Assembly: GCA_963768655.1 (NCBI GenBank)
Contig: CAVYIM010000004.1
Location: 256,001 to 320,000, forward strand
DNA from: an uncultured Chloroflexia bacterium
GTDB lineage: Bacteria > Chloroflexota > Limnocylindria > Limnocylindrales > CSP1-4
Direction of reading: 5' to 3'
DNA: 64,000 nucleotides
The notes beneath the pieces were generated by a model. That model was not told where the DNA came from and ran no database searches. It saw nothing but the letters and a program-made list of their open reading frames with translations. Below, in pieces: positions 27,280 to 42,841 of the stretch; the stretch's first letter is position 1; each line of letters starts with the position of its first letter. Both the position numbers and the translations under genes were made by a program.

Positions 27280-29107
27280 CTACTTGATCTTCGCCGGCGC
27301 GTCGGACTGGGTAGACGTCAGGACCTTGCCCAGGATCTCGACGACACCGGTGGTGCCGTTTACGCGGATCCGGTCGCCGCTCTTGATGTCGCGGGTGGCA
27401 ACCGACGTGCCGACCACGGCCGGGATGCCAAACTCGCGGGCCGTGACAGCCGGGTGGGCTACGGTGCCGCCCGCGTCGGTCACGACGCCGACGATCTTGG
27501 TGAAGACGGTCACCCAGGCCGGGTTGGTCATCTGGCAAACGAGGATATCGCCCGACTTGACCTGGTCGAACTGTTCGACCGTGTCAACGACTCGCGCGGT
27601 GCCTTCGACGACGCCTGGCGAGCCCGCGATGCCGGTGATCTGACCCTTGACCGTGGACTCCTTGCGGTGGAACTTCTCCGGGAAGCCCCACAGGTTCAGG
27701 TACGGGAAGGCCAGCTGGGTGGGCGTGCAGGTGCCGATCCATTCCTTCGGCCGGATTGTCTCGGCCTTCGCGTCCGCCGCCTTCCGCGCCTTCACGATCG
27801 CCCGGCCGTCCATTGCGGCGGGGTTGCCCATGAAGACCCGGAACTCGTTGTACTTGAAGAAAACGACGTCCTCGGCGGAGTCGAGGGCGCCCATCTCAAC
27901 CAGCTTCTGGCCGCACAGGATCAACGCCATGCGCAGGTGGGCGTTGGCGCCCTGGTCGATGTAGAAGTGGTGGTCCGGGGTGAGCGGGGCCATCTTGAGG
28001 TTGATGTCGTTGGCGGCCTTCATCTCGGCGAGAGCATCGCCGCTGAGGCCTTCGAGGATCTCCTTTGAGGCCGCAGCGATGTCGACCTGCGAGCTTCTTG
28101 ACCGTGCTCGGGTAATCGTAGTTGTTCTCGATGTAGCTACGCACGAGCCCGATGACCGGCTCCATGTGCTCGCGTACGGAGGGGAACCTGAACTCGTGAC
28201 TCCAGACGGCGTGCCAGCCGAATTCCTTCTGGTACGGCACGACCCGCTCGTCGATGAACTTCTTGCCGCGCGGCGTCTTCTTGAGGGCGGCGATGATCTC
28301 GCCTGCCGTCTCGTGCTTGAAGGCGGCGGCCAGGTCCTTGTCGGCCTTGGCCTCTTCCTTCATCTTCCAGAGGGCCTCGATCGAGTCCCAGTTGCGGTCG
28401 GCGGCGGAGTTCTGGAGACGGCCCAGGATGGCCTCGCCCTTCTGGTCGATCTTGCCATGGGTCTTCTCCATGACCGCCCGCAGGTTGAGGGTCGCGGAGA
28501 GCTGGGCGAAGTTGAGCATCCAGTGGATCTTCCAGTGCCGGTCGTGGATGTCGATGGCATCCTCGAGCAGGCAGGCCAGCTGGGCCAGGTTCATCTTGGG
28601 GGCCTGGTCGAACTTGTCTTCCAGGTACTTGAAGTTGTGCTCCATCTCCGGGCGCAGGCGGTCCTTCCACCAGGTCGCGAACTCGTCGCCGTAGGTGGGG
28701 AGGACGAAGCCTAGATAAGCCCCGATCTTGGCCGCGTAGTCGGCTTCCTGGGGCACGATCGGGGTCGTGGTGTAGCCGTACTCGCAGTCGGCGAAGGTGA
28801 CCAGGCCGGCCTGGGCCGGGATGGCCGCCGTGTACAGGTAGCCGTTGACTATCTTGGCGATCCAGTCCGTGGCGAACGGCGTGCCGAAGCGCCGGAACAT
28901 GTGATCGCAGCTCAACCACCACCCGCCGATGTCGTAGTACATCGGGCTGATAGGGTGGGGGCAGTGCAGGTCGTCGTAGACCCAGAAGAGTTCCTTCTCG
29001 GTCTCGGACTCCCACTTGATCGGGAAGTCCTTGTCGCCGAGGAACTGTCCCGTAATCTCTTCGCCCGGGCCGACCAACTTGGTGGTCAGTTTCTTGGCTT
29101 CCGCCAT
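27280..29107 (-). CDS. PEP-utilising phospho-His enzyme (substrate-binding plus swivel domain, no ATP-grasp; phenylphosphate synthase alpha-like architecture) with a 1-bp frameshift near 28086
   Basis: N-terminal FWVYDDLHCPHPISP; C-terminal GIAGSPGVVEG, TNPAW, GGTVAHPAVTAREFGIPAVVG, VNGTTG; ORFs 27896..29113 and 27280..28023 join by removing one base. Confidence 0.82.
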
Positions 29108-31476: not shown

Positions 31477-33010
31477 GTGACCACGAAGGTACCCGACTCG
31501 GTCGGCCGCGCAGATCCACCCATCCTGAGCCATTGGATAGACGGCCGTCCGGTCGAGGTCCTTGCCGAGCACACCGGGCCCGTCCACGATCCTTCGACCG
31601 GTGCCGTGATCGCCAGGGTTCCGCGCGGGGGAGCGGCCGAGGTCGACGCGGCCGTCACCGCCGCCCGGCGGGCATTCCCGGGCTGGCGCGACACGCCGCT
31701 CATCACTCGCAGCCAGATCTTCTTCGCCTACCGCGCCCTGGTCTACGGCCACCGTGAGGAGCTGGCGGCCCTGATCACGCGCGATCACGGCAAGACCTTC
31801 CCCGACGCCCTGTCCGAGGTCGTGCGCGGCCTGGAGACTGTCGAATTCGCCTGCGGGCTGCCGGTCCACCTGGCCGGCCTGAACACTCCGAACGTCTCGA
31901 CGCGGGTCGATGCCCACACCCTGCGGGAACCCCTGGGCGTGGCCGCCGGCATCACGCCCTTCAACTTCCCGGCGATGGTCCCGATGTGGATCTACCCGAT
32001 CGCCCTCATGACCGGCAACACCTTCGTCTGGAAGCCCTCCAGTCACACGCCCGGCGCCACGCAGCTCCAGGCCGAGCTGTGGAAGGAGGCCGGGCTGCCG
32101 GACGGCGTGTTCAACGTCGTTTACGGCGGACGCGAGGCTGTCGATGCCATCCTGGAGCACCCCGGCATCAATGCCATCCAGTTCGTCGGCTCCACCCCCG
32201 TCGGGCGGCACGTGTTCGAGACCGGCACCCGCAACGGCAAGCGTGTCGGCGCCTACACTGCTGCCAAGAACGCGATGATCGTCCTGCCGGACGCCGACAT
32301 GGAGCTGGCCGCGGACTCGGCCGTCGCCGCGGGCTACGGCTCGGCCGGCGAGCGTTGCATGGCCCAGACCCTCGTCCTGGCCGTTGGCGACGCCGGGGAT
32401 CGCCTGCGGCCGATGATCGAGGAGCGGATCGGCAAGCTCAAGATCGGCCCCGGCATGGAGCCGGGCGTCGACATGGGCCCGATCTACTCGGCCGAGCACC
32501 GCGCCTCTGATCATCGAGTGGATCGACAAGGGCGTGGCCGAAGGAGCCGAGCTGGTCGCGGACGGGCGGCCCTTCCATCATCCCGAGCATCCGGACGGCT
32601 ACTTCCTGGGCGTGACTCTCTTCGATCACGTGACACCGGCGATGGAGATCTACAAGGAGGAGATCTTCGGCCCGGTGCTGGGCGTCGTCCGGACGAAGAC
32701 CTTCGACGAGGCGGTCGGGCTCATCAACGCCCACCAGTACGGCAACGGCACCGCCATCTTCACTACCGACGGCGGCGCAGCCCGCCGCTTCGAGCTCGAG
32801 GTCGACGTGCCGATGATCGGCATCAACGTGCCGATCCCGGTGCCGGCCGGCTATCTCTCCTTCGGCGGGACGCGCGGGTCCGCCTTCGCGGACCTGCAGA
32901 TGCGGGGCGAGGACTCGATCCGCTTCTTCACCAAGCAGAAAGAAGTGACCGTCCGCTGGCCCGAGCCCGGCAAGCGCGGCGCGCTGAGCCTCGTATTCCC
33001 CGGCAACTGA
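31477..33010 (+). CDS. CoA-acylating (methyl)malonate-semialdehyde dehydrogenase-like ALDH with a 1-bp frameshift near 32507
   Basis: PLGVAAGITPFNFPAMVP, FVGSTPVG, AKN, GERCMA, EEIFGPV, YGNGTAIFT, GINVPIPVP; ORFs 31477.. and 32534..33010 join by removing one base. Confidence 0.88.
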
Positions 33011-33056
33011 CCATCTGCCGCCCGTCGCCGGCGATCGGAAGATTGGAGTGAGAGCA

Positions 33057-33842
33057 ATGAACCCACTGGACGCCTTCCGGCTGGACGGCCGCGTGGCTTT
33101 CGTCTCGGGCGGTGGCGGCGCGATCGGCTCGGCCCTGGCCGTCGTGCTGGGCAGCGCCGGCGCAAAGGTGGCCGTCTCGGACATCGACCAGGCCCGTGTT
33201 GACGCCGCTGCCGACCGGGTCCGCGCTGCAGGTGCCGAGTGCATTGCCCTGGTCGCGGACATCACCCGTGAGACGGAGGCCGAACGGGTGGTGGCCGCCA
33301 TCGTGGAGCGGTTCGGACGGCTGGACATCATCGTCAACGCGGTTGGCGGCGGCGCGGGCAAGGTCCTGTTCGATGCCCAGGAGTATCCCCGAGACGCCTG
33401 GGATTGGATCATGGAGATCAACCTGCGGAGCACCCTGGTGGCCACGCAGGCGGCCGTGAAGGCAATGGTCCAGGGCGGCCGCGGCGGGCGGGTCGTCAAC
33501 ATCAGTTCGGTCCGGGCGCAGCTCGGGATCAACTCCGGCTACTCAGCCTACGTCGCCGCCAAGGGAGCGGTCAGCTCGCTGACGCGCCAGTGGGCCACCG
33601 AGTGGGCCAAGCACGGCATCAACGTCAACGCCATCGCCCCGACCTTCGTCGACACACCTCAGGTGGCGATGCTGCTCGGCGACCCGGCCTTCAAGTCGAG
33701 CCTCGTCAGCCGGGTCCCGCTCGGTCGAGTCGGCGAGACGAGCGATCTCGTCGGGGCCGTCCTCTTCTTCGCCTCCGATGCCTCCTCGTTCGTGACCGGC
33801 CAGATCCTCACGATCGACGGCGGCCTGACCGCAACGCAGTAG
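33057..33842 (+). CDS. Short-chain dehydrogenase/reductase (gluconate 5-dehydrogenase/KduD-like)
   Basis: SGGGGAIG, VNISS, YVAAK, EWAKHGINVNAIAP, VTGQILTIDGG. Confidence 0.92.
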   Translation: MNPLDAFRLDGRVAFVSGGGGAIGSALAVVLGSAGAKVAVSDIDQARVDAAADRVRAAGAECIALVADITRETEAERVVAAIVERFGRLDIIVNAVGGGAGKVLFDAQEYPRDAWDWIMEINLRSTLVATQAAVKAMVQGGRGGRVVNISSVRAQLGINSGYSAYVAAKGAVSSLTRQWATEWAKHGINVNAIAPTFVDTPQVAMLLGDPAFKSSLVSRVPLGRVGETSDLVGAVLFFASDASSFVTGQILTIDGGLTATQ

Positions 33843-33862
33843 TCGACAAGGGGAGCACGTCG

Positions 33863-34759
33863 ATGGAGCAGGTGACGCCCAACATCTTCACGGAAACCAG
33901 GCTGCGCGGCTGCAACCCGAGCTTTGTCACGACGTCCGAAGGTGTCGTCGTGATCGACACTCCCCAGCTGCCGACGAAAGCCGTCGCGATGCGCAAGGAG
34001 GCGGAATCCCACGGCCCGATCCGCTACATCATCAACACCGAGCATCACGTCGACCACATCTTCGGCAACTACTATTTCAAGGGCGCGGGCACGGTCGTCA
34101 ACCACCAGGGCGTCTACGACAACTTCATGGTCGTCTACCCCGAACTGGACCCCTTCGCCTACGCGTACGAGGCCCTTCCGACGCCGGCCGGCAAGGGCAC
34201 CGATCTCGACGATCCCGCGGGTGTCGCGCTGTGGCCGGACCGGGACGAGTACTACGCCGACCCAAACAAGGGCACCGTCGTCTTCACCGGAGACCTGACG
34301 CTCCACGTCGGCGACCACACGTTCCATTGCCTCCACACCCCGGGCCACACCCCCGGCCAGCTCGCGGTCCACGTCCCGGAGGAGCGCACGGTATTCACCG
34401 GCGACACGATCTTCTCCGAGTGCCAGACCTGGCTCATGACGTCGAACGTGGACCAGTGGATCGCATCCCTGGACCGCATCCGCTCCCTCGATGTCGATCG
34501 CGTCGTCCCCGGACACGGCCCGATCACCACGAAGGCCTACGTGGACACTCAACGGGCGACGCTGATGGAGTGGAAGACGGCCGTGGCGCTGGCTGTGGCC
34601 AAAGGCTGGTCTCGCGAGGAGACGGTGGCTCGGGTCAACTTTGCGGATCGTTGCCCGGTCGACATCGGCCAGGGCTACATGATGAGTTACATCCAGACGC
34701 TGAATGCCGGATCGCTGTGGGACAAGCTGACCGCCGTCCCGGCTGCGTCGGCGCGTTGA
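33863..34759 (+). CDS. Metallo-beta-lactamase fold hydrolase
   Basis: VVIDTP, NTEHHVDHIFGN, TPGHT, FTGD, VPGHG. Confidence 0.9.
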   Translation: MEQVTPNIFTETRLRGCNPSFVTTSEGVVVIDTPQLPTKAVAMRKEAESHGPIRYIINTEHHVDHIFGNYYFKGAGTVVNHQGVYDNFMVVYPELDPFAYAYEALPTPAGKGTDLDDPAGVALWPDRDEYYADPNKGTVVFTGDLTLHVGDHTFHCLHTPGHTPGQLAVHVPEERTVFTGDTIFSECQTWLMTSNVDQWIASLDRIRSLDVDRVVPGHGPITTKAYVDTQRATLMEWKTAVALAVAKGWSREETVARVNFADRCPVDIGQGYMMSYIQTLNAGSLWDKLTAVPAASAR

Positions 34760-34809
34760 CTGCCGTCCGTGGCGCGACAGCTCCCGCATCCAAGGAGAGT
34801 GACACCCCC

Positions 34810-37137
34810 ATGGCCGACTGTGGCACTAAGACCTACAAGGCCGCCAAGCGCTACATCTACGCCTGGGGCGGCGGCAAGGCCGAGGGCAACGGCGGGATGA
34901 AGGATCTGCTGGGCGGCAAGGGTGCCGGCCTGGCGGAGATGACCAACGCGGGTCTGCCGACTCCCCCCGGATTCACCATCACCACCGAAGCCTGCAACGA
35001 CTATTTCGCCGCCGGCAAGACTCTCCCGGCCGGCCTCTGGGACGACGTCCTGGCCGCGGTGAAGGTCGTGGAGACTCGGACCGGCAAGGGCTTCGGCGAC
35101 GCGAAGAATCCGCTCCTGGTCTCCGTCCGCTCCGGCGCCAAGTTCAGTATGCCGGGCATGATGGACACCGTCCTCAACCTTGGCCTCAACGAGACCACGC
35201 TCCAGGGCCTCATCGCCTTCACCGGCAACGAGCGCTTCGGCTGGGACGCCTATCGCCGCTTCATCAGCATGTTCGGCCGGATCGTGCTCGACGTCCCGTC
35301 CGAGCGCTTCGACAAGCCGCTCGAGGCCGCCAAGAAGAAGCACGGCAAGGACGCCAAGGACACGGACCTCGCGGCTGCTGATCTGATGGCCCTGGCAGCC
35401 AGGTATAAGGAGATCGTGCGCGAGGCCGCCGGCCGCGAGTTTCCCGACGATCCCAACGAACAGCTGGACCTGGCCATCAAGGCCGTCTTCGCCTCGTGGT
35501 TCGGCAAGCGCGCCCACGACTACCGCGAGCACGAGAAGATCCCGCACGACCTCGGCACTGCGGTCAACGTGGTGACCATGGTCTTCGGCAACATGGGCGA
35601 CGACTCCGGGACAGGCGTCGCCTTCACACGCGACCCCAACACGGGCGAGAAGGTCCTCTACGGCGAGTACCTGGTCAACGCCCAGGGCGAGGACGTGGTG
35701 GCGGGCATCCGCACGCCGTCCCCGATTGCGGCCCTGGCCCAGGACATGCCCAAGGTCTACGTCGAGTTCACGAAGATCGCCGACAAGCTCGAGAAGCACT
35801 ACAAGGACGTCCAGGACCTCGAGTTCACCATCGAGCGCGGCCACCTGTACATGCTCCAGACCCGCAGCGCCAAGCGGACGGCCGCTGCCGCGATGCGGAT
35901 CGCCATCGACATGGTCCAGGAGCAGGTGATTACCCGCGAGGAGGCAGTCCAGCGCGTAGGCCGATCCCTGGCGAATCCGCCGCGGATCTCGGTCGATCGC
36001 CATGACCGGCGGACCGCACTGACTGTCGGTACGCCCGCCGTTCCGGGCGTGGCATGGGGTGAGATCGTCACATCGCCGGACGCCGCCGTGACGGCGGCAC
36101 GAGCGGGCAAGCGCGTGATCCTGACACGGCCCGAGACGTGCCCGGACGATGTCCACGGCATGGAGGTCTCTCAGGGGATCCTGACCTCGACGGGCGGCAA
36201 GACTTCACATGCCGCCGTAGTTGCTCGCGAGTTCGGGATCCCGGCGGTCGTTGGCGCAGGTGATCTGCAGGTCGGCGACGGGGTCGTCACGATCAACGGT
36301 CGTCTCTTCAAGGACGGCGACACCATCACTATCGACGGATCCACCGGGGAGGTCTTCGCCGGCGAGGTCCAGGGCAGCACCGTCGTCGTGCCCGAGGCAG
36401 CCACCCTGCTTGCCTGGGCGAAGGATGTCGGCATCCCAATCGGTGAGCCTGCAGGCGGGCCGGCCGTCGAGGCACCGGCACCGGCGGCGGCCCCGGCCAA
36501 GCCGGCGGCCCCGGCTGAGCTTAGCGCCGACGATGTTCTCCGTGGCCTCATGATCAAGGGACAGGTAACCCCTGAAGCGCTCGCCGTGGCGCTGGCCAGC
36601 CCACCGGACGAAGTCGCGCCACTCATCGACGGTCTCGTGGCCGAGGAACTGGCCGAGACTGTGGCCGAGGCGTCCCGGCTGACTCCGGAGGGCAGGCTGC
36701 GGGCGCTGGATGTCTTCGCCGCCGACCGCGAACGAGCCGGGGGCGAGGCGGCCTGCGTCGCCGCGCTGGACCAGTTCATCGTGCTCGACGGCAGGATGAA
36801 GGACCTGGTCACGGCCTGGCAGATTCGGGACGCCGCCAACCAGGTTTTCAACGACCACTCTGACGCCGCCTACGACGCATCTGTTCTCGATCGGCTCGGC
36901 GACATCCACGTCGGTGTAGCGGAGTTGCTGGACCTGCTCGGGACCAAGCTCTGGCGGATGGCTTGCTACCGCGAACGGCTGGAGCGTGCCTTGGCCGCTG
37001 CCCGGGCCGGCGATCCCAGGTTCGTGGCGGGGGTGCGGGTCGACAGCTACCACAGCGTCTGGTTCGAACTGCACGACGACCTCATCCGGCTGTGCGGTCG
37101 CACGCGCGCCGACGAAGTCGCCGCGGGTCGGGCCTGA
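34810..37137 (+). CDS. Truncated pyruvate,phosphate dikinase-like protein (ATP-grasp plus His swivel) fused to an Rv1126c-like C-terminal domain
   Basis: LLGGKGAGL, PLLVSVRSGAKFSMPGMMDTVLNLG, NAQGEDVVAGIRTP, DLEFTIE..LYMLQTR, GGKTSHAAVVARE; then an Ala/Pro linker and a domain ending DSYHSVWFELHDDL; no PEP/pyruvate TIM barrel. Confidence 0.88.
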   Translation: MADCGTKTYKAAKRYIYAWGGGKAEGNGGMKDLLGGKGAGLAEMTNAGLPTPPGFTITTEACNDYFAAGKTLPAGLWDDVLAAVKVVETRTGKGFGDAKNPLLVSVRSGAKFSMPGMMDTVLNLGLNETTLQGLIAFTGNERFGWDAYRRFISMFGRIVLDVPSERFDKPLEAAKKKHGKDAKDTDLAAADLMALAARYKEIVREAAGREFPDDPNEQLDLAIKAVFASWFGKRAHDYREHEKIPHDLGTAVNVVTMVFGNMGDDSGTGVAFTRDPNTGEKVLYGEYLVNAQGEDVVAGIRTPSPIAALAQDMPKVYVEFTKIADKLEKHYKDVQDLEFTIERGHLYMLQTRSAKRTAAAAMRIAIDMVQEQVITREEAVQRVGRSLANPPRISVDRHDRRTALTVGTPAVPGVAWGEIVTSPDAAVTAARAGKRVILTRPETCPDDVHGMEVSQGILTSTGGKTSHAAVVAREFGIPAVVGAGDLQVGDGVVTINGRLFKDGDTITIDGSTGEVFAGEVQGSTVVVPEAATLLAWAKDVGIPIGEPAGGPAVEAPAPAAAPAKPAAPAELSADDVLRGLMIKGQVTPEALAVALASPPDEVAPLIDGLVAEELAETVAEASRLTPEGRLRALDVFAADRERAGGEAACVAALDQFIVLDGRMKDLVTAWQIRDAANQVFNDHSDAAYDASVLDRLGDIHVGVAELLDLLGTKLWRMACYRERLERALAAARAGDPRFVAGVRVDSYHSVWFELHDDLIRLCGRTRADEVAAGRA

Positions 37138-37223
37138 CGAGCACACAACGACATCGAGCATCCGACCTGCCGAGGTCGGCCAGAACGGCGGATGGATCCG
37201 CCACGCGACGAAGCGAGGACGTC

Positions 37224-37592
37224 ATGTTCACGCGAATTGACCGGGCCGAGACTGCGATCACGCCCATGCCCGGTCGTAACTGGCACGCTTACATCGGCCC
37301 TCAGACCGCCCCGACCAGGCACCTCTCGATGGGCGTCTCCGTCTACGAGCCAGGAGTTCGTCCCACGGGCCACGTGCACGAGGCCGCGGAGGAGACGGTC
37401 TACTGCCTCTCCGGGCGCGGCAGGCTCGTCTGCGATGCGGGACCGGCCGAGCTCGAGTCCGGCGTCGCGGTCTTCATCCCGGCCGGGACGTTCCACGCCA
37501 CCGAGTGCGACGGCCCGGAGCCGCTCGAACTGCTTTGCGTCTTCACGCCGCCCGTGGTGCCGGGCTCGTACGAGAAGAAGACACAATCATGA
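37224..37592 (+). CDS. Cupin domain protein
   Basis: GHVHEAAEETVYCLSGRG...IPAGTFH; C-terminal PPVVPGSYE. Confidence 0.88.
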   Translation: MFTRIDRAETAITPMPGRNWHAYIGPQTAPTRHLSMGVSVYEPGVRPTGHVHEAAEETVYCLSGRGRLVCDAGPAELESGVAVFIPAGTFHATECDGPEPLELLCVFTPPVVPGSYEKKTQS

Positions 37593-38476
37593 AGACGACT
37601 GCCCAGGACCCGGAAATCGGCCGGCTGGAAGAGGCTGCCCGCCGTATTCGCGTGGAGATCATCCGCGCCGTGAACCAGGCCAAGGCCGGGCACCTGGGCG
37701 GGCCGCTCTCGGCGGCTGACGTGCTCGCCGCGCTGTACTTCCGCGTCATGCGCATCAGGCCCGAAGAACCAGGCTGGCCGGATCGCGACCGGTTCGTTCT
37801 CTCCAAAGGCCACTCGTCGATCGGGCTGTATGCCGCGCTGGCCCTGCGTGGCTACTTCCCCGTCGAGGAGCTCGCGACCTTCGATGCCGCCGGAACCCGG
37901 CTGCAGGGGCATCCGGACATGACCAAGCTGCCCGGGCTGGACATGTCCACCGGATCGCTCGGCATGGGCATCTCGGCCGGTCTCGGGATCGCCCTCGGAG
38001 CGCGCCTGACCGGTCGGAGCGACGTTCGGACATACGTCATGCTCGGCGACGGCGAATGCCAGGAAGGCGAGGTCTGGGAGGCGGCAATGGTCGGGGCCCG
38101 GTACCGCCTGGACACACTGATCGCGATCGTGGACCACAACAAGCTCCAGCAGTACGGCTGGGCCGGTGACGGACCCGACGGCCGCCTGCCACCGGAAGAG
38201 CCGGACGAGCTCCTGGCCAAATGGACAGCCTTCGGCTGGCGAGTCCTGGAGGTCGACGGCCACGACATGGCCGCCGACGTAGAAGTGCTCGAGCGCGCGC
38301 GCGAAGGCGACGGCCGGCCCACGGTCGTGATCTCCCACACCATCAAGGGCAAGGGCGTCTCATTCATGGAGGGCCACTACTACTGGCACACGAGGCCGCT
38401 CACGGCGGACGAGTTCGCCACGGCGATGGCCGAGCTCGGTGAGCCGGTGGCGGCGACGAATGGAGGCGCCCGATGA
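37589..38476 (+). CDS. Transketolase N-terminal (ThDP-binding) subunit
   Basis: GHLGG, DRFVLSKGH, LQGHP, TGSLG, GDGECQEG...N, TIKGKG. Confidence 0.93.
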   Translation: MKTTAQDPEIGRLEEAARRIRVEIIRAVNQAKAGHLGGPLSAADVLAALYFRVMRIRPEEPGWPDRDRFVLSKGHSSIGLYAALALRGYFPVEELATFDAAGTRLQGHPDMTKLPGLDMSTGSLGMGISAGLGIALGARLTGRSDVRTYVMLGDGECQEGEVWEAAMVGARYRLDTLIAIVDHNKLQQYGWAGDGPDGRLPPEEPDELLAKWTAFGWRVLEVDGHDMAADVEVLERAREGDGRPTVVISHTIKGKGVSFMEGHYYWHTRPLTADEFATAMAELGEPVAATNGGAR

Positions 38477-39441
38477 CGCTGCCGCTCGGTCACGCCATGC
38501 GCGAAGTGTTCGGCGAGACCGTCGCCGAGCTGGCCGACACCGATCCCCGCATCGTCATGCTCGACGCCGACGTCGGCAGCTCCACGAGGGCTGACATCTT
38601 CGAGCACCGCCATCCGGATCGCTATCTCCAGATGGGCATCGCCGAGCAGAACATGCTCGGAGTGGCCGCCGGCCTGGCGACAGTGGGTCTGATCCCGTTC
38701 GTCAGCACGTTCGTCGCCTTCGCCGTGGTCAGGCCCCTGGACCAGATCCGCGTCCTGATCGCCCAGACGGGCTTGAACGTGAAGATAACTCCGAGCTACG
38801 CGGGGCTCTTCACCGGAGTGACCGGCAAGACGCACCTGATCGTGGACGACGTCTCGATCATGCGGGCGATGCCGGGCATGGTCACGGTCTGCCCGGCCGA
38901 TGACATCGAGGCGGCCCAGGCACTGCGGTGGTGCGCTTCCTACCAGGGGCCCGCCTACATCAGGCTCGTTCGCGACGCGACGCAGCGGCTCTTCGACGGC
39001 GCCTACGCGTTCGAGTTCGGGCGGGCCGTCGTTGTCCGCGAGGGTCGCGACGTGACGCTGATCAGCACCGGCACGCAGACGCCGCGCGTCGTCGACGCCG
39101 CGGAGATGCTTGCCGCGCAGGGCATCGAAGCGCACGTCCTCCACGTTCCGACGATCAAGCCACTCGACGTGCCGGCGATCGTCGCAGCCGCGGCCAGGAC
39201 CGGCTGCGTGGTCACCGTGGAAGAGCACACGGTCATCGGCGGTCTCGGCGGCGCCGTAGCCGAGGCCCTGTCCGAGCATCGCCCGACCCTGGTCAAACGG
39301 CTGGGCATGCAGGACGTCTTCGGCGAGTCGGCATCCAACGCGGCGCTGCTCGAGCTGTACGGCCTGTCCGCGGCCCGCGTATCGGAACAGGTCGCGGCGA
39401 TCTGCCGAGCCAGAGGAAAGGAGGCGGCCGCGCGGAGTTGA
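38473..39441 (+). CDS. Transketolase C-terminal subunit
   Basis: GIAEQNM, DQIR, GKTH, GPAYIRL, TIKPLD, TVEEH..GGLG; ATGA overlap. Confidence 0.93.
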   Translation: MTLPLGHAMREVFGETVAELADTDPRIVMLDADVGSSTRADIFEHRHPDRYLQMGIAEQNMLGVAAGLATVGLIPFVSTFVAFAVVRPLDQIRVLIAQTGLNVKITPSYAGLFTGVTGKTHLIVDDVSIMRAMPGMVTVCPADDIEAAQALRWCASYQGPAYIRLVRDATQRLFDGAYAFEFGRAVVVREGRDVTLISTGTQTPRVVDAAEMLAAQGIEAHVLHVPTIKPLDVPAIVAAAARTGCVVTVEEHTVIGGLGGAVAEALSEHRPTLVKRLGMQDVFGESASNAALLELYGLSAARVSEQVAAICRARGKEAAARS

Positions 39442-39480: not shown

Positions 39481-39876
39481 CAACGGTCGGAACCCGCCAA
39501 CTTGCCCCGGAGGAGACAACCTTGCGATCGCCGGCCCGTAGATACGCGGGACCGGGTCGCATGCGTCGAGGATCAGCATGGTCGGCCGGGCCCCCAGGCC
39601 TTTGCGGTCGACCTCGGTTCACGACGGCCCGCCTTCGATCCCGCCTCGGGATCCTGACGGACACAGGTCGGATCGCCATAGCGTGCCCTGCAGGCTCGGC
39701 GGCCTTCCCTCGCAGCCGTGAGTCCTGCCCAAGCGGCAGCCAATCTGGATCGGCCGTCCGCACTGGCCGCCTCGCTTCCCGATGCGCAATGCGCTCGGCG
39801 TCGACGGACGGCGGTCGAAGCATCTGGCGCGGGCGATGTTCGCGGGCCCGCATCCAAAACGCGTGAAGGAGAGGCA

Positions 39877-41088
39877 ATGTCGAAGACCGTCTTGTTGATC
39901 GGCACGCTGGATACCAAGGGCCGAGAGTACGCCTACGTCCGCGACCTGATCCGGGCTCGCGGGCTGAACACATTCGTGCTGGACGCCGGGGTCCTGGGCG
40001 AACCGGTGTTCACGCCCGACAGCCCCGCCGCCCTCACTGCCGAAGCCGGCGGGGGCTCGCTCGCCGAGCTCCGCGAGCGGCACGATAGAGGCCACGCGAT
40101 CGAGATCATGGGTCTGGGCGCGCGCGTCCTCGCGGTCAAGCTCGCCGCCGAGGGCAAGTTCGACGGCGTCATCGCCATGGGCGGCTCGGGTGGCACGTCC
40201 ATCGGGAGCACAGCCATGGCGGCGCTTCCGGTGGGCATGCCCAAGTTGATCGTGTCAACCATGGCCTCGGGCGACGTCGGCCCATACGTCGGCGTCAAGG
40301 ACATCACGATGATGTACTCCGTCGTCGACGTGTCCGGGCTCAACCGCCTGTCCCGCCGGATCTTCGCCAACGCCGCCGGGGCCATCGGCGGCATGGTCGA
40401 GCAGACGATGCCGAAGGCCGAGGACAAGCGGCTCATCGGCGCCACGATGTTCGGCGTCACGACGCCGTGCGTCGACCGTGTGCGGGCGCGATTTGAGGCA
40501 GAAGGCTACGAGATGCTCGTCTTCCACGCGGTCGGAAGCGGCGGCCGCTCCTTCGAGGCGCTGATCACGGACGGCGTCTTCGACGGAGTCGTGGACGCAA
40601 CGACGACAGAGTGGTGCGACGAGCTGGTCGGCGGCGTCCTGTCGGCCGGACCGGAGCGCCTGGATGCCGCCGCCAAGAAGGGCATCCCGCAGGTCGTCTC
40701 GCTCGGCGCACTCGACATGGTGAACTTCGGCCCGAGAGACACGCTTCCGGCCAAGTTCGAGAAGCGGAACATCTACATCCACAACCCGGAAGTGACACTC
40801 ATGCGCACAACGCCCGAAGAGTGCGCGAAGCTCGGCGAGATCATCGCCAAGAAGCTCAACAAGACCACCGGGCCCACCGCGCTGTTCGTGCCCCTCAAGG
40901 GCGTGAGCGCGATCGACGTCGAGGGCGGGCCTTTCTACGATCCCGCCGCGGACAAGGCGCTCTTCGAGGCCATTCGCAAACACATCGATCGCTCGAAGGT
41001 CGATCTGGTCGAGCTCGACCTCGCCATCAACGATCCCGCTTTCGCCGACGCGATGGTCGACCGCCTGCAGAAGATGCTCAAGAAGTAA
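39877..41088 (+). CDS. Tm-1-like ATP-binding domain protein (UPF0261)
   Basis: IGTLDTKGRE, GGSGGT, LPVGMPKLIVST, SVVDVSGLN, TMFGVTTPCV, FHAVGSGG, GALDMVNFG, HNPEVTLMRT. Confidence 0.92.
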   Translation: MSKTVLLIGTLDTKGREYAYVRDLIRARGLNTFVLDAGVLGEPVFTPDSPAALTAEAGGGSLAELRERHDRGHAIEIMGLGARVLAVKLAAEGKFDGVIAMGGSGGTSIGSTAMAALPVGMPKLIVSTMASGDVGPYVGVKDITMMYSVVDVSGLNRLSRRIFANAAGAIGGMVEQTMPKAEDKRLIGATMFGVTTPCVDRVRARFEAEGYEMLVFHAVGSGGRSFEALITDGVFDGVVDATTTEWCDELVGGVLSAGPERLDAAAKKGIPQVVSLGALDMVNFGPRDTLPAKFEKRNIYIHNPEVTLMRTTPEECAKLGEIIAKKLNKTTGPTALFVPLKGVSAIDVEGGPFYDPAADKALFEAIRKHIDRSKVDLVELDLAINDPAFADAMVDRLQKMLKK

Positions 41089-41130
41089 GGGCAGCCAGAC
41101 ACCCAGGAAATCGCCAAAGGAGGAAGGGCC

Positions 41131-41979
41131 ATGCCATTCATCGCGCGCGCCGAAGTCGTGCGGCGACTCCGTGCGCAGGCTGCCACCGGCAAGCCGATCG
41201 TGGGCTGCGGTGCCGGCACTGGCATCTCGGCCAAGATGGCCGAGGCCGGCGGCTGTGACCTGATCATCATCTACAACTCGGGACGCTACCGGATGGCCGG
41301 CCGAGGCTCCCTCGCCGGCTTACTCGCCTACGGCGACGCCAATGGCATCGTCGTCGAGATGGCCTCCGAGGTGCTGCCGGTCGTCAAGGACGTGCCAGTC
41401 CTGGCGGGCGTCAACGGTACCGACCCGTTCCGGCTCATGCCGGTCTTTCTCAAGCAGCTCAAGGAAATCGGCTTCGACGGCGTCCAGAACTTCCCGACCG
41501 TCGGCCTCATCGACGGCGGCTTCCGGGCCAACCTGGAAGCGACCGGGATGGGCTACGACAAGGAGATCGAGACGATCCGGCTGGCGCACGAGATCGATCT
41601 CTTCACCTCCCCGTACGTCTTCAATGCAGACGACGCGAAGGCAATGGCCAAGGCCGGCGCCGACCAGTTGGTGGCCCACGTCGGCCTCACCACGGCCGGA
41701 ACCATCGGCGCCGGAGTGGCCCTGACACTGGACCAGGCGATCGACCGAGTCATGGCGGTGGTCGAGGCCGGACGGTCGGTCCGCTCGGATATCCTCGTCC
41801 TTTGCCACGGCGGGCCCTTCGACGAGCCCGAGAACGTGGGCGTAGCGCTGGCGCGGATGCCGGGCGTCCAGGGTTTCTTCGGTGCTTCCAGCATCGAACG
41901 CCTGCCCACCGAGCGTGGGATCCGCGCACAGGTGGAGGAGTTCAAGCGGCTGAAGGTCGCCCCCGCCCCCAGGGCGTAG
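41131..41979 (+). CDS. TIM-barrel signal transduction / PEP hydrolase-family protein
   Basis: [70 protein letters not shown]. Confidence 0.92.
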
Positions 41980-42103
41980 GCAGACGGGCCGGGTTCATCG
42001 GAAGGCGGCGGGCCCTGAGGATCGGCGACCCGCCGCCTGGTCTTGTGGCCAGCCGGTGCGCGTGGGGAGCGTCGCCGGCGGCACTGATAGGAGGCTCTGA
42101 TCG

Positions 42104-42841
42104 ATGGAGATCGACGTCGCGCTCGTGCCGATGGTGGCTCGCGCCTGGAAAGCCACCGTCTGTATCGTCATCGACGAACTGCGCGCGAGCTCCACCATCA
42201 CTACGATCCTGGACGGGGGCTGTTCTCGGCTGTACGTCACAGCCGGCCTGGATGCGGCACGGCGCCTCGCCCGGCAGCACGATGGTCTGCTCGTCGGCGA
42301 ACGGGGCGGCTCGGCGCCGGCGGGTTTCGACTTCGATAACTCGCCAGCCGCCCTGTCGCGCGCCGACCTGAAAGGCAGGGTCGTGATCCTTTCCACATCC
42401 AACGGAACCAGAGTGCTGGGCTGGGTAAGGGACGCGCCCGCGACCCTGGTCGGCTGCCTGCTGAACGCCCGCGCCTGTGCCGAGGCGGCGCTGGAACTGG
42501 CCGGCTCCTTGAATGCTCGAATTGGCATCGTGTGTGCGGGCACGCTGGGTGTCTTCGCGCTGGACGACGGGATCACGGCAGGCGTCATCGTGGAGCGCCT
42601 CGTGGAGACGATCGCGTCGCGGGGCGGCGTCTACGAACTGACGGAGGCCGCGGTGGCGGCCGTGCAGCTGCGAGCCAGCTATGGCGATCTGTTGACTCCA
42701 CTCCAGAGCTCGGTATCAGGCAGGCTGCTGGCCAGACTGGGCACCCACGACGACGTTCCCTTCTGCGCCCGGCCGGACGTCAGCACGACCGTCCCGATCC
42801 TGCGCCCGGTTTCGCCGCTCGTCGTCGAGCCCTTCGTGTAG
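42104..42841 (+). CDS. 2-phosphosulfolactate phosphatase (ComB)-family phosphatase
   Basis: VIDELRASSTI, GERGG..GFDFDNSP, STSNGT, LLNA, CAG..G.FALDD. Confidence 0.88.
   Translation: MEIDVALVPMVARAWKATVCIVIDELRASSTITTILDGGCSRLYVTAGLDAARRLARQHDGLLVGERGGSAPAGFDFDNSPAALSRADLKGRVVILSTSNGTRVLGWVRDAPATLVGCLLNARACAEAALELAGSLNARIGIVCAGTLGVFALDDGITAGVIVERLVETIASRGGVYELTEAAVAAVQLRASYGDLLTPLQSSVSGRLLARLGTHDDVPFCARPDVSTTVPILRPVSPLVVEPFV

Follow-up and report, generated by a model that had tools for sequence, protein, structure and literature searches.

A single open reading frame at positions 34810..37137 (forward strand, stop codon included) of the 64,000-nucleotide window analysed here, a segment of contig CAVYIM010000004.1 (positions 256,001 to 320,000) from an uncultured Chloroflexia bacterium, encodes a 775-residue protein in which a truncated pyruvate phosphate dikinase (PPDK) is fused to an Rv1126c-like domain. 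Judged from its sequence, the gene is a single-chain form of the Mycobacterium tuberculosis kinase VadK (Rv1127c) and its partner Rv1126c, because the C-terminal domain aligns to an M. tuberculosis protein and because the genes for orthologues of that protein overlap a truncated PPDK gene at its stop codon. VadK is a PPDK-derived kinase that is needed by M. tuberculosis to cause disease in mouse models and that autophosphorylates on His422 with ATP and Mg2+ (PMC13400623, EMBO Rep 2026; bioRxiv 10.1101/2025.10.30.685616). Rv1126c, its operonic neighbour, raises VadK solubility and is separated from it only by a 2 M NaCl wash (PMC13400623, section 28); in that paper it is mentioned only in the Methods, as a solubility aid. 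The scope of the family as given there is pathogenic mycobacteria and related genera, and fused forms are not discussed in the paper's text, where, supplements aside, the word 'fused' occurs 0 times and 'fusion' 3 times, the two occurrences shown referring to a mass spectrometer (PMC13400623). Literature on Rv1126c, Rv1127c and VadK, again leaving the VadK supplements aside, yielded no other study of the partner.

The N-terminal two thirds of the protein retain the phosphohistidine-forming parts of a PPDK and have lost the remainder. Pfam identifies a PPDK_N domain (1.1e-53) and a PEP-utilizers mobile domain at residues 434-513 (7.3e-24; nucleotides 36109-36348), and no other Pfam match is seen in the fused protein at E ≤ 0.1; the barrel model for phosphoenolpyruvate (PEP) and pyruvate, PF02896, is not matched. 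The full-length PPDK model TIGR01828 scores 719.6 bits, below its cut-off of 843.45, and covers only model positions 1-525 of 865; since the match stops at position 525, the PEP/pyruvate barrel is absent. The protein thus has the composition of the VadK type, with PF01326 and PF00391 only, the catalytic histidine present and the barrel missing. It also scores above the cut-off of 456 for NF004531 (PRK05878) with 521.1 bits, a model that does not discriminate between the two kinds of protein, as the canonical ppdK of the same genome passes as well (463.3 bits), as do 5 of 14 control genomes. A linker and swivelling phosphohistidine domain of the fused/VadK lineage occupies residues 372-545 (35923..36444, forward strand), and within it the codon for His467 (36208..36210), in the motif GGKTSH at residues 462-467, encodes the presumed phospho-carrier, equivalent to VadK His422; this column is invariant among 65 fused proteins. 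There follows an Ala/Pro-rich linker, EPAGGPAVEAPAPAAAPAKPAAPA, at residues 546-569, of which residues 546-567 (36445..36510, forward strand) form a disordered tether with predicted local distance difference test (pLDDT) values below 50 in the full-length AlphaFold2 model (mean pLDDT 89.3, predicted template modelling score (pTM) 0.66). An earlier sequence-only reading of this region had named the PPDK ATP-grasp and His domains, had placed the GGKTSH histidine at 36208-36210, in exact agreement with the residue numbering here, and had located the Ala/Pro linker at about 36445-36516; its statements that the barrel has been replaced, so that this is no normal PPDK, and that the protein is a 'His-kinase-like device' agree with the TIGR01828 result, in which model positions 526-865 are unmatched, and with the published autophosphorylation of VadK.

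The last 205 residues stand where the PEP/pyruvate barrel would be and form a domain (hereafter the C domain) that matches no Pfam or NCBIfam model, the sole match, to DUF1490, being at chance level (E 0.24). It aligns end to end over 200 residues with the 201-residue M. tuberculosis protein P0371 (37% identity, E 6e-34), a member of a 319-sequence cluster containing M. tuberculosis entries. We infer that P0371 is Rv1126c itself, from the gene position of its Mycobacterium-type orthologues and from the operonic neighbour named in the VadK paper. In Mycobacterium-type loci the 201-residue gene begins on the stop codon of the truncated PPDK gene, with a 4-nt overlap of the ATGA type in three loci (L107, L110 and L111) and of the GTGA type in one (L102). 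Identity of the C domain to Mycobacteriaceae members in a 40-sequence alignment (A2) ranges from 31 to 39%, and the partner-domain motifs TxWQ, NxHxDxxYD and DSxHxVWFxxHE are all present. The resemblance to Rv1126c proposed in the sequence-only reading is borne out by the alignment and by the stop-codon overlaps, and the motif that it gave for the mycobacterial protein reads IDSYHTVWFELHEELI in P0371. All five motifs that it quoted from the C domain are found in the gene: LRGLMIKG (36538-36561), RLTPEGR (36676-36696), LVTAWQ (36805-36822), NDHSDAAYD (36850-36876) and DSYHSVWFELHDDL (37042-37083), each on the forward strand.

The C domain defines a large family. In a library of 1.84 billion proteins it matches 2088 cluster representatives at E ≤ 0.001; 1577 of these remain at a threshold of 1e-10, and 697 at 1e-30. 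Among the 150 best representatives the match ends within about 10 residues of the C terminus in nearly all, 83 are 190-230 residues long and 35 are at least 400 residues long. Proteins of 426-1357 residues that carry the domain number 439, and the best 120 of these all contain PF00391, with 119 of the 120 also containing PF01326. The Protein Atlas holds only unnamed 204-residue actinobacterial clusters, one of them automatically named 'putative MarR'.

Fusion of the kinase part to the C domain is the usual arrangement among the close relatives of the gene. A genome scan in which each species was represented by a single genome yielded at least 600 matching stretches, 591 of them confirmed, and the locus counts given here refer to the best 80 of these loci, which are the nearest relatives of the query and therefore a biased sample, with none from M. 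tuberculosis. Kinase part and C domain lie in one open frame in 76 of the 80, three being frame-broken and one having a free-standing C domain. Most of these loci are from Limnocylindria-type Chloroflexota, with some from Acidimicrobiia and Dormibacterota and three from cultured Nocardia; Nocardia aobensis is among the organisms with the fused form. In a sample of 301 genomes of the Mycobacteriaceae, the family of that Nocardia, 104 match the domain; among the best 30 loci of this sample, 4 are fused, 5 have the kinase followed by the partner, 12 have the partner followed by the kinase, and 9 are without a kinase within 1.5 kb, so that 21 of the 30 are fused or adjacent. The distribution is patchy within the phylum of the window, where 10 genomes from a sample of 301 have the C domain (E ≤ 1e-10), including 6 of 15 genomes of the same family and 1 of 5 other genomes of the same genus. 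In the swivel-domain tree, which is not rooted, both main branches contain fused proteins, so that the fusion may have come first and the mycobacterial split may have arisen from it. The proposal of the sequence-only reading that the two parts act as one unit is supported by the 76 fused loci, which come from independent assemblies, by the three arrangements in the Mycobacteriaceae, and by the behaviour of Rv1126c toward VadK in solubility and 2 M NaCl.

In five of the nine Mycobacteriaceae loci that have no adjacent kinase, a search of the genome recovered a truncated PPDK gene 1.7-5.4 kb away on the same contig in every case (5 of 5). The suggestion that the C-like gene in such loci is paired with an AMP-binding (ANL) enzyme and not with a PPDK was dropped, a truncated PPDK being nearby in all five genomes, with loci L108, L109, L118 and L119 outside that test. 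We note separately that in two genomes (G208 and G219, loci L098 and L101) the gene order is truncated PPDK, ANL enzyme, C-like gene and Amidohydro_2, such that an adenylating enzyme lies between the partners.

Given the metagenomic source, we considered whether the fusion or the mosaic described below could be an assembly artefact, either through loss of a stop codon or through the joining of unrelated sequences in one contig. Three apparent frameshifts are present in other genes of this assembly, and no public sequencing run holds more than 0.11 of the sequence words of the stretch. The same architecture is nonetheless found in 76 of 80 loci in independent assemblies including those of cultured Nocardia strains, eight independent proteins have the mosaic form with 770-790 residues, and contigs of relatives assembled from two peat runs bridge the His domain, the linker and the C domain (X1 record 8, 36157-37297; X2 record 16, 36157-36758). 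We regard an artefact as extremely improbable, and as a source of the fusion it is excluded by the independent assemblies and the bridging contigs. The four runs that were aligned yielded contigs of relatives and, in X3, also two identical contigs of 151 nt; the contigs of relatives show a 6-nt length difference at 36481, within the tether. Summed depth is high over 34873-35873, where ppdK sequence conserved among many organisms accounts for it.

The kinase part is itself a mosaic, in which recurrent gene conversion overwrites codons 1-371 with sequence from the canonical ppdK of the same genome. The tract held in common with canonical ppdK comprises a 47-nt leader and codons 1-371, encoding the ATP-grasp domain (34763..35922, forward strand), and is recognised by identity, by tree topology and by GC content at third codon positions (GC3). 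It includes a Shine-Dalgarno-like sequence, aaggagag (34792..34799, forward strand), 10 nt ahead of the ATG. The fused gene is 97.8% identical to the ppdK of the same genome (on a different contig, C5 of genome G000) over nucleotides 1-497 and 88.2% identical over nucleotides 470-1113, and is diverged beyond this; residues 120-371 are 87% identical to the same-genome PPDK. In the sister genome (G002) the fused gene and its own ppdK are 100% identical over the first 476 nt. Between the two genomes the same first segments are 91-92% identical, and because paralogues within a genome are thus closer than orthologues between genomes, recurrent gene conversion is indicated. GC3 is 0.925 in codons 1-371 (to nucleotide 35922), 0.78 in codons 372-545 and 0.82 in codons 546-775, and the drop that the sequence-only reading had noticed after about 35950 is real. 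Its further suggestion of a chimeric origin holds in that the mosaic is real, although the boundary at about 35923 marks the end of the conversion tract and not the fusion junction.

Phylogenetic reconstructions of the two segments, from quick IQ-TREE runs with 38 rows and none dropped, disagree as expected of such a mosaic. For residues 120-371, eight fused proteins (the clade of 770-790 residues) fall in with five canonical PPDKs (SH-aLRT 99), and 23 further fused or split forms are separate from them (98), whereas for residues 372-545 the same eight mosaic proteins join the other fused forms (24 rows, SH-aLRT 98), to the exclusion of the canonical PPDKs (93). On shared descent of the kinase part as a whole with other barrel-less forms, the two trees point different ways: the swivel segment groups with these forms, the ATP-grasp segment with canonical PPDKs. 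The ATP-grasp module is thus interchangeable with that of the housekeeping enzyme, and the conversion between ppdK and the fused gene can be viewed as a natural domain swap of the nucleotide module. As conversion has kept the ATP-grasp third nearly identical to that of the housekeeping ppdK, the nucleotide half-reaction is presumably canonical. We also note that the canonical ppdK itself (L082, about 375.9-378.75 kb on contig C5 of G000, reverse strand) has gained two bases, each a separate insertion, directly behind codon 89 when compared with the fused gene and with the sister ppdK, and reads as two open reading frames; it may contain an assembly indel or be a real pseudogene.

Modelling of the C domain from the 40-sequence alignment (pLDDT 94.7, pTM 0.90) predicts a winged helix-turn-helix (wHTH) at residues 573-624 (model residues 9-60; 36526..36681, forward strand), also seen with VIA-align and by profile, followed by an up-down helical bundle at residues 626-771 (model residues 62-207; 36685..37122, forward strand), which contains both NDHSDAAYD and DSYHSVWFELHDDL. 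In VIA-align comparisons the matches of the whole C domain are mostly to wHTH proteins, and the helical part resembles only generic bundles. The wHTH superposes on MarR-family domains with Z 11-13 and a root-mean-square deviation (rmsd) of about 2 Å over 75-81 residues, and has the MarR wHTH fold in comparison with Rv2887 (5hsm and 5hso; Z 12.7-13.4, rmsd 1.9-2.1 Å, 75-80 residues); the family profile also matches the MntR/DtxR-type wHTH of 8pvt (E 1.4e-4). The best matches of the bundle are four-helix bundles of a generic kind, such as the FAT domain 5w93 (Z 13.0, rmsd 2.0 Å, 111 residues), and the CheA P1 domain 1tqg superposes with Z 10.4 and rmsd 2.3 Å over 99 residues, within the range that the tool gives as common for helical bundles. 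Foldseek comparison of the C domain with the PDB returned nothing at E ≤ 0.001; GntR/FCD rows (6lg2, 4p9f, 3fms and 6z74) appear at E 0.014-0.08 with template modelling (TM) scores of 0.2-0.3 and are absent from the top 50 VIA-align rows.

The wHTH raises the question of whether the C domain regulates genes by binding DNA, as genuine MarR proteins do, with its DNA binding controlled by phosphorylation by the fused kinase, in the manner of regulators of the phosphotransferase system that contain PRD domains. The structural matches to MarR proteins at Z 11-13 fit such a role, as does nomenclature: free-standing 201-residue members in Mycobacterium and Mycolicibacter are labelled 'MarR family transcriptional regulator' by NCBI, identical free-standing proteins are so named in the sources, and two homologues (P0061 and P0255) have precomputed matches to PF12802 (MarR_2). 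The C domain of the window, by comparison, has no match to MarR Pfam models even at E ≤ 10, and the net charge of the recognition helix in 40 members never exceeds 0 (median -2, range -4 to 0), with -3 for the whole wHTH and -8 for the helical bundle. An acidic recognition helix argues against DNA binding, charge being only a proxy, and the winged helix appears to have lost the basic face needed for it. A DNA-binding role for the domain is therefore very unlikely.

Conservation within the C domain is concentrated in the bundle. Twelve residues are invariant in 40 members (W670, Q671, N681, H683, D685, D689, G734, H748, W751, F752, H755 and R766), and in the model they fall at the end of the helix formed by residues 81-107, in the loop 108-121, at the start of helix 122-147, in the loop 169-182 and in the first turns of helix 183-197. 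From the order of the helices, we infer that these positions come together at one pole of the bundle. His184 and His191 (model numbering) would lie, by their heptad spacing, on a core-facing stripe with Trp187, Phe188, Leu194 and Ile195, and this heptad position suggests that the invariant histidines face the core, unlike the solvent-exposed acceptor histidine of histidine phosphotransfer (HPt) domains.

A plausible reaction scheme can be put forward from these parts. The ATP-grasp domain would phosphorylate the swivel residue His467 using ATP and Mg2+, as its intact motifs suggest and as has been seen by experiment on the M. tuberculosis homologue only. The phosphorylated His467 domain would then swing on its linkers to the C module, which hangs on a 22-residue disordered tether at the usual place of the barrel and is predicted to consist of a wHTH without a basic face followed by a four-helix bundle. 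There, Asn681, His683, Asp685, Asp689, His748, His755 and Arg766 are modelled as converging at one end of the bundle, in a likely metal or ligand pocket. That this conserved pole is the acceptor-side site, binding or itself receiving what the phosphorylated His467 phosphorylates, we hold to be nearly an even prospect. If so, what the gene encodes would no longer be a PPDK but a phosphotransferase of dikinase origin whose third domain is new. The sequence-only reading had conjectured that the small domain serves as phospho-acceptor, substrate-binding or output module. In a more specific proposal, speculative and rather unlikely, the C domain would complete a new class of dikinase-derived phosphotransferases as their third catalytic domain: a four-helix bundle anchored by the wHTH, with a buried His/Asp metal site that takes the phosphoryl group from the swivel histidine and passes it to a metabolite or protein.

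Several considerations weigh against an acceptor role. Both phosphotransfer to the C domain and ligand binding by it are deduced only, and the clustering of the invariant residues is derived from topology and not from coordinates. The core-facing His748 and His755 are better suited to a buried metal site than to an exposed HPt-type acceptor histidine. The wHTH-plus-helical layout resembles that of GntR/FCD (Foldseek E 0.014-0.08) and MntR/DtxR (E 1.4e-4) proteins, so that a sensor fits equally well, and the long disordered tether is no proof of a defined docking geometry. The published VadK model has the kinase act on methylcitrate synthase and dehydratase, and not on Rv1126c (PMC13400623). 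A predicted complex of the kinase part (residues 12-545) with the C domain gave a median of 0.33 against 0.22 for one control, and weighs neither way.

These considerations bring in a different role for the C domain, as a sensor or scaffold. Its conserved pocket would bind a metabolite or metal, or its wHTH would dock target proteins, and in this way it would switch or direct the autophosphorylating kinase, which would pass the phosphate to another protein. The target could be a second swivel protein of the PRK08296 type, or methylcitrate-cycle enzymes in mycobacteria. Consistent with this are the combination of a wHTH with a helical domain containing conserved His and Asp residues, as in MntR/DtxR and GntR/FCD regulators, the best bundle matches being to protein-docking four-helix bundles (FAT 5w93, Z 13.0), the role of Rv1126c as a solubility partner of VadK, and the report that VadK pulls down MCS and MCD (PMC13400623). 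The varied metabolic clusters in which the genes lie, with a short-chain dehydrogenase (SDR) and a metallo-beta-lactamase-fold (MBL) gene in 38 of 80 loci and ANL and amidohydrolase genes in some Mycobacteriaceae, point the same way, as does a second swivel-His gene that stands beside the fused gene in 11 of the 80 loci and 5.7 kb upstream of it in the window. Such invariance, however, involving an Asn, three His, two Asp, an Arg and two Trp across phyla, is commoner in catalytic or fixed cofactor sites than in sensors that adapt to different pathways, and the domain sits exactly at the position of the catalytic barrel. We consider a sensor or scaffold the main alternative, though on balance less likely than not.

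The second swivel-His gene just mentioned lies at 27325..29083 on the reverse strand and encodes a PRK08296-like protein of about 600 residues with a substrate-binding-like part and a second swivel histidine, but without an ATP-grasp domain (PEP-utilizers 9.9e-23). A tblastn search with the 605-residue protein of locus L009 matches it at 63-65% identity in two frames, with an apparent frameshift near 28087; in the 11 loci where an orthologue adjoins the fused gene, the two are divergently transcribed. A role for the PRK08296-like protein as a relay partner is possible. Two other arrangements also couple swivel domains to C-type domains. A metagenomic protein of 1049 residues (P0501) has an extra N-terminal PEP-utilizers swivel domain followed by the truncated PPDK and the C domain, and thus two phosphohistidine domains. 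Nocardia aobensis (G001, loci L091 and L092) has two further paralogue pairs in which a small swivel-His protein is followed by a C-like protein, one of them without an ATP-grasp domain. From the PRK08296-like neighbours, the 1049-residue form and the Nocardia aobensis pairs, the recurring partner of the C-type domain is the swivel domain. The C-like copy at L091 keeps NDHxD and HxVWFELHEDLI, and the copy at L092 has lost the first motif.

Comparison with known systems places the fused protein closest to VadK with Rv1126c. Both have an ATP-grasp domain and a swivel histidine without the barrel, the catalytic histidine is in the same motif, the partner is homologous from end to end, and the parts are physically and genetically coupled. 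The fused protein differs in being one polypeptide with an Ala/Pro tether, in having an ATP-grasp domain of canonical-PPDK descent through gene conversion, in lacking a prp/methylcitrate context, its conserved neighbours being the SDR and MBL-fold genes, and in its host, an uncultured Limnocylindria-type soil or peat bacterium and not a pathogen. With canonical PPDK (TIGR01828) it has in common the first 371 residues, which are close (87% over residues 120-371), the swivel domain and the GGxTSH motif, but it lacks the TIM barrel of model positions 526-865, and the known mechanism for making or using PEP is therefore closed to it.

Kinases in which the third domain has been exchanged offer a second point of reference. 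Rifampin phosphotransferase, PigC/RedH and the PRK08296 proteins likewise have an ATP-grasp domain, then a swivel histidine, then an acceptor domain that is not a barrel; their NCBIfam models match the swivel part of the fused protein weakly, and a PRK08296-like gene is a recurrent neighbour. They differ in domain order and in their unrelated acceptor domain, and the scores are far below the cut-offs (52 against 999 for RPH). The MarR, MntR/DtxR and GntR/FCD regulators resemble the C domain in their N-terminal wHTH fold and in the helical domain that comes after it, where His, Asp and Glu residues are conserved, but the C domain has an acidic recognition helix and no Pfam match, and the full length of its helical part cannot be superposed on theirs (Foldseek TM 0.2-0.33).

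The natural fusion can be read as a 'Rosetta stone' which, with the three gene arrangements, marks Rv1126c-type proteins as integral to the device and brings the conserved pocket into focus. The family also reaches past the groups considered in the VadK paper, to uncultured Chloroflexota, Acidimicrobiia and Dormibacterota, which offer harmless proteins for study. Should the C domain prove to be a third catalytic domain, mycobacterial VadK alone would be two thirds of an enzyme, and the whole would be an old and widespread device of soil bacteria (about 2,000 sequence clusters) rather than an invention of pathogens.

The immediate upstream neighbours of the fused gene are an MBL-fold gene (33860..34759, forward strand; Pfam Lactamase_B 8.7e-26), which ends 50 nt upstream of it, and an SDR gene (33048..33842, forward strand; Pfam adh_short_C2 1.3e-59), 17 nt from the MBL gene. 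Of the 80 loci, 38 have an MBL orthologue (67-93% identity) no more than 4 kb from the fused gene, and an SDR gene is present in 49, adjoining the MBL gene wherever this is present, with three exceptions. The pair is upstream and co-directional in five loci and downstream in 33, of which 32 are convergent. In Nocardia aobensis (L073, 4566-5372) a Y_phosphatase3 gene, of the tyrosine-phosphatase family, has about 35 nt in common with the end of the fused gene, and a cluster of seven loci has this neighbour.

Farther upstream in the window, at 31477-33010 (forward strand), an aldehyde-dehydrogenase-like gene shifts frame near 32480-32540, with its halves on open reading frames 31477-33051 and 32534-33010. 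Downstream of the fused gene, a split transketolase is present at 37589-39441; this is the one downstream gene that was looked for among the 80 loci, and it is uncommon there, its N-terminal half lying near the fused gene in 6 of them. It is followed at 39871-42841 (forward strand) by a row of genes encoding a UPF0261 protein, a PEP_hydrolase-like TIM-barrel protein (3.6e-122) and a ComB-like 2-phosphosulfolactate phosphatase.

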